This document shows positions 33,026-36,000 of a DNA stretch of 64,000 bases, piece after piece. Position numbers: made by a program. The DNA comes from Escherichia coli (lineage in GTDB: Bacteria; Pseudomonadota; Gammaproteobacteria; Enterobacterales; Enterobacteriaceae). How positions within the stretch are numbered: the stretch's first letter is position 1; each line of letters begins with the position of its first letter. The stretch lies in assembly GCF_045037415.1 (NCBI RefSeq), contig NZ_CP173438.1, one strand, 5' to 3'.

Positions 33026-36000
33026 TTATTGTCCTGCGAGTTGCTGAAGGGCTGTGATGACGCGGTCGGCATCGGCGGTGGTCATATCCGGGAACAGCGG
33101 CAATGAACAGATGCGTTCGCTATTCCATTCGGTATTCGGTAACGACAGCGTGGGAAAACGCTCGCGATAATATTTTTGTGTGTGAGCAGCGCGGAAATGT
33201 AACCCGGTACCAATGCCTCTTTCTTTTAACGCTTCCATCAACGCATCGCGACTGATACCACAACGTTGTTCATCGACACGAATAATAAACAGATGCCAGG
33301 CGTGAACGTGCGGCCAGGCGGGAAGGCTTAATGGCTGAAAGGGGAGAGTTGCCAGTGCTTGCTGATATTGCTGGGCAATTTCGCGCCGCCGGGTGTTGAG
33401 GTGCTCTAATTTGACTAACTGTGTCAGGGCAATCGCGGCGTTAATATCGGTCAGATTGTACTTATAGCCCGGCGTTAAGACTTCAGCCTGCGGTGCACGG
33501 CCCCAGGTATGTCTGTCATAGGCATCGACACCCAGACCGTGAAATTTCAGCATCCGCAGCTGGCGGGCAAGATTTTCATTATCAGTAACAATCAGGCCAC
33601 CTTCCGCACAGGTAATATTTTTGATGGCGTGAAACGAAAAAATAGCGGTACCTTTTGCGCCAATATGTCGCCCTTTGTAATACGTACCTACGGCATGGGC
33701 AGCATCTTCGATAACTGCGATGCCGTAACGTTCGCCAATGGCGCGAATGGCGTCAATATCTGCTGGCGCACCGGCATAATGCACCGGAATGATGGCTTTA
33801 GTGCGTGGTGTAATGGCTGCTTCGATCGCTTCAGGCGTGACCATCAGCGTATCGCGGTCGACATCCACCATTACCGGCGTTGCACCCAGCAAGGAAATCA
33901 TATTGAGGGTTGAAACCCAGGTCAGGGAAGGCGTAATCACTTCATCGCCCTTGCCAATTTCCAACGCCATTAGCGTGATATGCATTCCGGCGGTGGCTGA
34001 ACTGACCGCGATGGCATGCTGATTTCCCGTCAACTGGCAAAAAGCTTGTTCAAGCGCCTGATTCTTCGGACCGGTTGTGATCCAACCGGATTCGAGAACC
34101 TCTTTAACTGCAGCGAGTTCCTCTACGCCCATTGCTGGTCGCGAAAAAGGCAAAAATCCTGACATTGTTTTTCCATCCGTCATTGAATACCTGTCCACTT
34201 ATATTTGCTATAAAGAGTGTTGTGTATATTTTGCCATTTGGAGCAAAATTTTAAGGATAGAATATTAACTTAACCTTAAGAAACTAATATTAGACGTAAA
34301 TATTGAAATTTTTATATTTTTTCTTATTTAGACTTTGCATTTGGCAAAATTTTGAGGCATTTTGCCGGCATCATAGGATTTTTAATATTACACCAACTGC
34401 TAATTATCGCCAGAAAAGTCGCTCAATTTCACGGTAATTGTCTGGTTGCGCTTGTCTACAGGTGGAGTTTACGTGTTAGCTTTTTGCCGATCTTCGTTGA
34501 AGTCAAAAAAATATTTCATCATTTTACTGGCGCTCGCTGCAATTGCCGGACTGGGGACTCATGCCGCCTGGAGTAGCAATGGTTTGCCACGCATCGACAA
34601 TAAAACACTGGCCAGACTGGCACAGCAGCACCCGGTTGTCGTTTTGTTTCGCCATGCTGAACGTTGCGATCGTTCAACCAATCAATGCTTGTCAGATAAA
34701 ACAGGTATTACGGTCAAAGGTACCCAGGATGCCCGTGAACTGGGCAACGCTTTTAGTGCTGATATCCCTGATTTTGATCTCTATTCCAGTAATACCGTCC
34801 GGACTATTCAGTCGGCGACCTGGTTTTCGGCGGGTAAAAAGCTGACGGTAGATAAACGATTTCTTCAATGCGGTAATGAGATTTATAGTGCAATTAAAGA
34901 CTTACAACGCAAAGCACCTGATAAAAATATCGTTATTTTTACCCATAATCATTGCCTGACATATATTGCTAAAGATAAGCGTGATGCGACATTTAAACCT
35001 GATTATCTGGATGGTTTAGTCATGCATGTGGAAAAAGGCAAAGTTTATCTGGATGGGGAATTCGTTAACCACTAAATTTTCAATCTGACAGCCAGTGATG
35101 GCTGTCATCATTGTTAAAGAAGACCTTTCAAACGTAACGTTTTTCGGGTGGCAACATTCAAATCATAATGCACCAGATCTTCAGGTTTTACCCACGCGTA
35201 GTCCTGAAACTCTTCGTTTATTTTCACATCTCGGTTGGCAGAAACGCAGTCAAAAATCAGGTAAATCATATAAATCTCTTCCTTGCGACCATCTGCATAC
35301 GTCTTGGTGCGAATATCATCGCTGAAGGTCCACGGCGTGATTTCTGTCAAAAGCAGCTGTTCTCCCAGTTCTTCGCGAATTTCGCGGCGTAGTGCCTCTT
35401 CAATTCGTTCGCCAGGCTCCACGCCGCCACCCGAAAGCGCCCATTGACCGGGGAAAACGCCGCGATCGTCGGCCATTTTACACAGCAAATAAGCACCATC
35501 ATTTTGAATCAAAGGGCATACAATAGTCCGTTGTCGCACAGGGGTATTCCTTATAAATAAAAAGAAACCATGAGAATACGGTAACTCAGAAATATGTGAA
35601 AGTGACAGTAATCTCTTTTGCGATGATAACTACATTTATTATTATTTTTGTGTGTATCGATAAAGTGTGTTTATTTTTTCGGCGTTTAATTATTTAAGAA
35701 GTATTTAGTTACAATAAGTGACTAGATCCCTTTTTTCGCTCATTGAATCCTCTGCGCCAGGCAGTACAATCCCGCAGCTTTGGGAATTTTGATTAATTGC
35801 TTGTGGGAAAGAGGATAATGAAAAAAATTGCGCTAGCAGGTCTGGCCGGAATGCTGTTGGTTTCTGCATCGGTCAATGCAATGAGCATCAGCGGCCAGGC
35901 GGGTAAAGAATACACCAATATTGGTGTCGGTTTTGGGACTGAATCGACGGGCCTGGCGTTAAGCGGTAACTGGACACATAACGACGACGACGGTGATGCC

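Follow-up and report, generated by a model that had tools for sequence, protein, structure and literature searches.

A probable PmrA/BasR box within a conserved arnB promoter layout on an Escherichia coli chromosome

Introduction

Is the short direct repeat in front of arnB the site through which PmrA (BasR in E. coli) would control arnBCADTEF, and is the operon behind it in working order? The locus lies within a window of 64,000 nt, the whole stretch of DNA analysed here, which covers the E. coli chromosome from nuoB to gyrA with the gene order of K-12: nuoB-N, yfbM, yfbL, yfbK, rbn, elaA, elaB, menFDHBCE, pmrD and, on the minus strand, arnFETDACB, followed by ais, nudI, yfaZ, yfaY, yfaX, rhmD, yfaV, yfaU, an ISNCY transposase gene, glpCBA, glpTQ, inaA, yfaE, nrdBA, yfaL, ubiG and gyrA. 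The pmra-box has been described as a pair of hexamers with 5 bp between them, located over or in place of the -35 element of pbgP (arnB), ugd and pmrCAB, and the DNA-binding domains of PmrA are arranged head-to-tail and contact the repeated TAA (PMC10570014). Footprints of PmrA are available on Klebsiella pneumoniae pbgP (PMC2565834), the species from which the direct evidence for PmrA-DNA contact stems. In E. coli, Fe3+ at low Mg2+ and a pH of 5.8 each induce a P_arnB-gfp reporter, and this induction depends on pmrA, pmrD and phoP (bioRxiv 10.1101/2020.05.05.080051). The gene downstream of the box in the window is arnB; that its promoter depends on pmrA in E. coli is taken from this literature on another strain. 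Additionally, the exact 60-mer at 34302..34243 was used in a study of enteropathogenic E. coli (EPEC), in which the PmrA consensus was named "with a slight modification" (PMC10729948).

Sequence of the box and its frequency in the window

Read along the arnB-coding strand, positions 34280..34264 are CTTAAG-GTTAA-GTTAAT (plus strand, 34264..34280: ATTAACTTAACCTTAAG), so that the two YTTAAK-like half-sites with 5-bp spacing proposed by a first-pass annotation are exact to the base. The coordinates of this and the other features are compiled in Table 1. The box departs from YTTAAK-N5-YTTAAK by a single mismatch, a G for Y at the first base of half-site 2 (box position 12), which is an unconserved position with an information content of 0.2 bits across 75 distinct boxes. 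The TAA core is present in both half-sites, and the box starts 115 bp upstream of the arnB ATG (34165). The sequence can also be read as TTAAGGTT-AAG-TTAATATT, which fits a TTAAnnTT repeat, the form in which the E. coli BasR box has reportedly been described.

Table 1. Features of the arn region, with coordinates in the 64-kb window.
Feature	Coordinates	Strand	Remarks
Probable PmrA/BasR box	34264..34280	-	half-site 1 34280..34275; half-site 2 34269..34264; 11-bp direct repeat
Predicted -10 hexamer TAAAAT	34253..34248	-	exactly 10 bp after half-site 2
Predicted transcription start	34239..34243 (~34241)	-	placed from the -10 position, ~7 nt past the hexamer
arnB	33026..34165	-	379 aa; NF008658, 738.6 bits (cut-off 631)
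arnC	32054..33022	-	full-length, NCBIfam equivalog
arnA	30072..32054	-	full-length, NCBIfam equivalog
arnD	29185..30075	-	full-length, NCBIfam equivalog
arnT	27533..29185	-	full-length, NCBIfam equivalog
arnE	27201..27536	-	full-length, NCBIfam equivalog
arnF	26815..27201	-	3' end overlaps the convergent pmrD 3' end by 7 bp
pmrD	26555..26821	+	connector protecting phospho-PmrA; 88 aa, 3 differences from K-12; NF011994, 176 bits (cut-off 96)
PhoP-box-like CGTTGATAATAGGTTTA	26487..26503	+	upstream of pmrD; 2 mismatches to KGTTTA-N5-KGTTTA; then 12 nt and TAAATT
ais	34473..35075	+	pmrG homologue, LPS core heptose(II)-phosphate phosphatase; divergent from arnB, 307-bp common spacer

A 17-mer of this composition is not in itself informative. 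When up to one mismatch is allowed, the 64-kb window contains 3 matches where 2.42 are expected, and at least as many arose in 46 of 100 shuffles. Since the bare 17-mer is thus no rarer than chance predicts for a stretch of this length, its significance must rest on context. With such context included, that is, the box with at most one mismatch followed by 10 nt and TAnnnT, the window yields 2 matches, against 0.05 expected from whole-window shuffles.

Conservation of the promoter layout in Enterobacterales

The context was evaluated on arnB loci from 80 species of Enterobacterales (some counts refer to 79 loci), using dinucleotide shuffles and the antisense strand as controls and, for the box alone, a search zone of 300 bp upstream of arnB. 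Within this zone, a sense-oriented box with at most one mismatch is present in 77% of 79 loci, compared to 6.7% of shuffles and 20% on the antisense strand. A TAnnnT hexamer follows the automatically picked box at exactly +10 bp in 58/79 loci, while the other offsets between 0 and 30 score 0 to 6. If the box (up to two mismatches), the 10-bp distance and TAnnnT are combined, 78 of the 80 loci match in the sense orientation, 2/80 in the antisense orientation and 1.4% among dinucleotide shuffles, which argues that the site is real and conserved in position. The stricter form (up to one mismatch) retains 58/80 sense loci and none of the 80 antisense, with 0.06% of shuffles. The 78 composite instances correspond to 75 distinct 57-mers from related species, so that the counts do not represent independent events; despite this kinship, the contrast with both controls is very large. 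Among the 78 instances the box starts between 115 and 251 nt before the ATG, and thus only the distance between box and hexamer is fixed. Conservation also extends to bases that were left free in the search pattern, namely a T preceding the box and two TT pairs, one at box positions 8-9 and one following half-site 2.

In the window, the predicted start would give a leader of ~76 nt and place the box at approximately -39 to -23, about 2 bp from the ~-37 to -21 reported for the K. pneumoniae pmra-box (PMC10570014). The box stands where a -35 element would otherwise lie, in line with what has been published for K. pneumoniae; this assignment is based on the sense-oriented box, the exact 10-bp distance and TAnnnT in 78/80 loci set against the shuffled and antisense controls. 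The arnB promoter was missed by a simple sigma-70 scan, which is the expected outcome for a promoter without a -35 element. A search of the arnB leader and the ais-arnB spacer against Rfam returned no RNA element. The rigid spacing of box and -10 agrees with the published structural model and is nothing new in kind.

Conservation within E. coli

A match to the 421 bp around the box is found in 5416/5426 complete E. coli genomes; this segment is 100% identical to that of strain SK1144 and 96.4% identical to that of K-12 MG1655. The 53-bp core (34290..34238) is found in 5414/5426 complete genomes, of which 1702 are identical, 3685 share 95-99% identity (1 or 2 differences) and 27 share 90-95%. 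The 17-mer is invariant in K-12 and in the alleles sampled (five, including O145:H28, KKo009 and EC5931), all differences falling outside of it, and in one sampled allele the -10 reads TAGAAT instead of TAAAAT. The K-12 arnB (pmrH/pbgP/yfbE) promoter shares with the window the 17-mer, the -115 distance to the ATG, the -10 hexamer, ais upstream and pmrD downstream. It differs by one base of the 53-bp core (34245, T in the window and C in K-12), and the whole ais-arnB spacer is 96.4% identical. As far as the sequence tells, there is no functional difference between the two promoters.

One of the sampled alleles has a rearranged upstream region. In EC5931 (NZ_CP104592.1; a blood isolate from China; locus L084, 1..150), unrelated sequence replaces the DNA from exactly the 5' edge of the box upstream, with an IS1 transposase gene ~55 bp further upstream. 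The native AT-rich upstream DNA is thereby gone and arnB is separated from ais.

Alternative readings of the site

The box could be a chance match in an AT-rich spacer, with the true control element located elsewhere. TTAA-rich 17-mers are common and this one is not over-represented in the window, as the counts given above illustrate. Chance, however, does not account for a position, an orientation and a 10-bp distance to the -10 that are kept in 78/80 species against 1.4% of shuffles, nor for a box that is unchanged across the E. coli alleles sampled, in contrast to variable bases nearby. Together with the single-box enrichment (77% against 6.7%) and the 58/79 loci with a hexamer at +10, these observations led to the rejection of a chance origin, which we regard as extremely improbable. 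A different question concerns the extent of the site. The first-pass annotation had pointed to another CTTAA downstream of the two half-sites, and this sequence is indeed present 8 nt past half-site 2, at 34255..34251. As a third PmrA contact it would find some precedent in the weaker protection from half-boxes in K. pneumoniae that is mentioned in PMC2565834. The CTTAA nevertheless starts 14 nt after half-site 2 instead of 11, which breaks the phase of the repeat, and it shares bases with the -10 TAAAAT. Moreover, TTAA is not conserved at this place in other genera, where TAGCAT, TAACCT, TAGGGT, TACATT, TAAATT and TATTTT occur and only the TAnnnT of a -10 is kept. On account of the 14-nt phase and the TAnnnT-only conservation, the third half-site was rejected as very unlikely and 34255..34251 was assigned to the -10 region of the promoter.

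The remaining alternative concerns the protein rather than the DNA. According to one model, the paralogous regulator QseB, phosphorylated by PmrB, activates arn while PmrA occludes RNA polymerase (PMC10729948), and the site would then belong mainly to QseB or be shared by QseB and PmrA. Phosphorylated QseB shifts a 60-bp fragment identical to 34302..34243 of the window, and QseB is the only regulator for which binding to this exact sequence is documented; a double mutant of pmrA and qseC shows upregulated arnB and eptA and a 16-fold higher colistin MIC (PMC10729948). On the other hand, the P_arnB-gfp reporter in E. coli needs pmrA for induction (bioRxiv 10.1101/2020.05.05.080051), and a PmrA transcription activation complex has been obtained on the homologous promoter, with a DNA-recognition residue required for activation (PMC10570014). 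The distance between box and -10 across genera is that expected of an activator site replacing a -35 element, and in PMC10729948 the QseB motif was placed by consensus only, PmrA binding there being untested. A site that is mainly QseB's, or shared in this way, is therefore considered unlikely, and activation by PmrA is retained as the preferred reading. It is plausible that QseB cross-talk at or beside the box adds to PmrA activation without replacing PmrA.

The divergent gene ais bears on the same question. Because the TTAA cores are self-complementary, the ais-sense strand of the box also reads as a box (ATTAAC-TTAAC-CTTAAG, 2 mismatches to the consensus). No canonical PmrA box oriented towards ais was found in the spacers of E. 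coli, E. albertii, Citrobacter and Salmonella, and hence one site might serve both directions. That a single site acts on both arnB and ais, and perhaps also as a point of competition between PmrA and QseB, is a speculative and rather doubtful extension. If the two regulators did compete at the box, arn expression would depend on the qseBC state of the strain as well as on basRS. Elsewhere in the ais-arnB spacer, a block of ~33 bp at ~34330..34362 (GCAAAATGCCTCAAAATTTTGCCAAATGCAAAG in arnB sense) has been conserved between E. coli, E. albertii, Citrobacter sp. R56 and Salmonella and could be part of the ais/pmrG promoter.

Proposed action of PmrA and comparison with known promoters

With these alternatives weighed, it is highly probable that a dimer of phosphorylated PmrA (BasR) binds to the 17-mer at the arnBCADTEF promoter. 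The proposal of a PmrA/BasR box upstream of an intact operon is supported by identity with K-12, by the naming of the sequence in the EPEC study, by the pmrA-dependent reporter and by the layout shared by 78 of 80 loci. For this particular strain, we infer from literature and homology that PmrA binds, where transcription starts, which signals induce it and that translation is coupled. In the proposed sequence of events, sensor PmrB/BasS (Fe3+, low pH) would provide the input and, under PhoQ-stimulating conditions, further input would arrive via PmrD. Two DNA-binding domains would then bind head-to-tail on the two TAA-containing half-sites 11 bp apart, at a site that stands in for the -35 and ends 10 bp upstream of the hexamer at 34253..34248. 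Sigma-70 RNA polymerase would start at ~34241 and transcribe the seven tightly packed arn genes into one mRNA, the negative charge of lipid A would be reduced, and less polymyxin or cationic peptide would be bound.

This arrangement resembles several characterized promoters. The Salmonella enterica pbgP (pmrH) box shares the -115 position, the orientation, the 10 bp to the -10 and the divergent pmrG/ais upstream, but reads CTTAATGTTAATTTAAT, a perfect consensus, and is followed by the -10 TAGGGT (subsp. diarizonae alone was compared). The pmra-box of K. pneumoniae pbgP, known from crystal structure 4S05 and a cryo-EM activation complex, likewise has two hexamers 5 bp apart with TAA cores, lies 10 bp from a TAnnnT hexamer and replaces the -35. 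It differs in its sequence (CTTAAT-ATTAT-CCTAAG), in its start at -171 from the ATG and in the presence of a second promoter under direct PhoP activation (PMC2565834). Further afield, the pho-box promoters of PhoB share the direct repeat, the 11-bp periodicity, the overlap with the -35 region and the head-to-tail dimer (PMC10570014). Here, the recognition sequence is another one, the box lies ~4 bp further upstream, and PhoB, unlike PmrA, cannot do without its contacts to RNA polymerase (PMC10570014). The window contains an already described, textbook PmrA/BasR promoter in its normal state, with nothing unusual about it, and the practical value of the finding is annotation only.

The arn operon and its regulatory inputs

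All seven arn genes are intact, as had been claimed at the outset: their order is B, C, A, D, T, E, F, the reading frames contain no internal stops, their lengths equal those of K-12 with 1 to 9 amino-acid differences each, and all seven proteins score above the NCBIfam equivalog cut-offs over their full length. They are identical to the RefSeq proteins of SK1144. The junctions from arnB to arnF measure +3, -1, -4, -1, -4 and -1 nt, a spacing that fits translational coupling. Regarding the start of arnB, an in-frame ATG at 34183 (minus strand), 18 nt upstream of the annotated start, would give a form of 385 aa instead of 379 aa; this upstream ATG is conserved in E. albertii and Salmonella, and the choice of start is ambiguous. 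At the other end of the operon, arnF and pmrD overlap convergently at 26815..26821, and transcription of the arn operon thus runs antisense into pmrD.

The first-pass annotation had placed the determinants of resistance (pmrAB/phoPQ/mgrB) outside the window. This holds for basRS, which lie outside together with ugd and eptA, but not for pmrD, which encodes the connector and lies inside. Synthesis of L-Ara4N requires ugd in addition to the arn genes, and addition of phosphoethanolamine requires eptA. The role of PmrD in E. coli is indicated by the pmrD dependence of the arnB reporter (bioRxiv 10.1101/2020.05.05.080051), and pmrD expression is PhoP-dependent in this species (PMC2565834). The PhoP-box-like sequence at 26487..26503 is the putative PhoP site of pmrD, judged by its similarity to the consensus and its position.

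The mgrB input, in contrast, belongs to the route known from Klebsiella. Loss of mgrB makes Klebsiella resistant to polymyxin through the direct activation of arnB by PhoP in that genus, while this direct branch, of the Klebsiella/Yersinia type, is reported to be absent from E. coli (PMC2565834; bioRxiv 10.1101/2020.05.05.080051). In agreement, no PhoP box (KGTTTA-N5-KGTTTA) with three or fewer mismatches was detected on either strand of the 307-bp ais-arnB spacer, in a scan of low sensitivity that recovered the K. pneumoniae control only as a 3-mismatch match. In the literature surveyed, colistin resistance of chromosomal origin in E. coli is attributed mainly to changes in basRS. The sequence of the locus indicates that the strain has a normal, inducible L-Ara4N pathway, and any chromosomal colistin resistance would consequently come from regulator alleles; an mcr gene elsewhere represents the other route.

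Other observations in the window

The second composite match in the window lies at 55448..55480 (plus strand; TTTAATTCAGTTTAAAT...TACCTT), 157-189 bp upstream of the autotransporter gene yfaL/ehaC (start 55637), in a spacer that is extremely AT-rich. Among the papers listed by a literature search for yfaL/ehaC in combination with BasR/PmrA, none refers to yfaL or ehaC. The match is probably due to chance. The sole Rfam match in the window is the nuoG RNA motif (RF01748, 50.3 bits) at 3756..3798 on the plus strand, in the spacer between nuoF and nuoG.

The window is nearly identical to SK1144: its first 25.8 kb contain 2 differences and the following 24 kb another 2. A copy of IS1397 (IS3 family), which in SK1144 is located between yfaL and ubiG, is absent from the window (59436), and the DNA therefore stems from a close relative of SK1144 and not from SK1144 itself. 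Finally, gyrA (60404..63031, plus strand) encodes Leu83 (codon 60650..60652) and Asn87 (codon 60662..60664), the quinolone-resistance pair S83L and D87N, and the strain is thus probably fluoroquinolone resistant.
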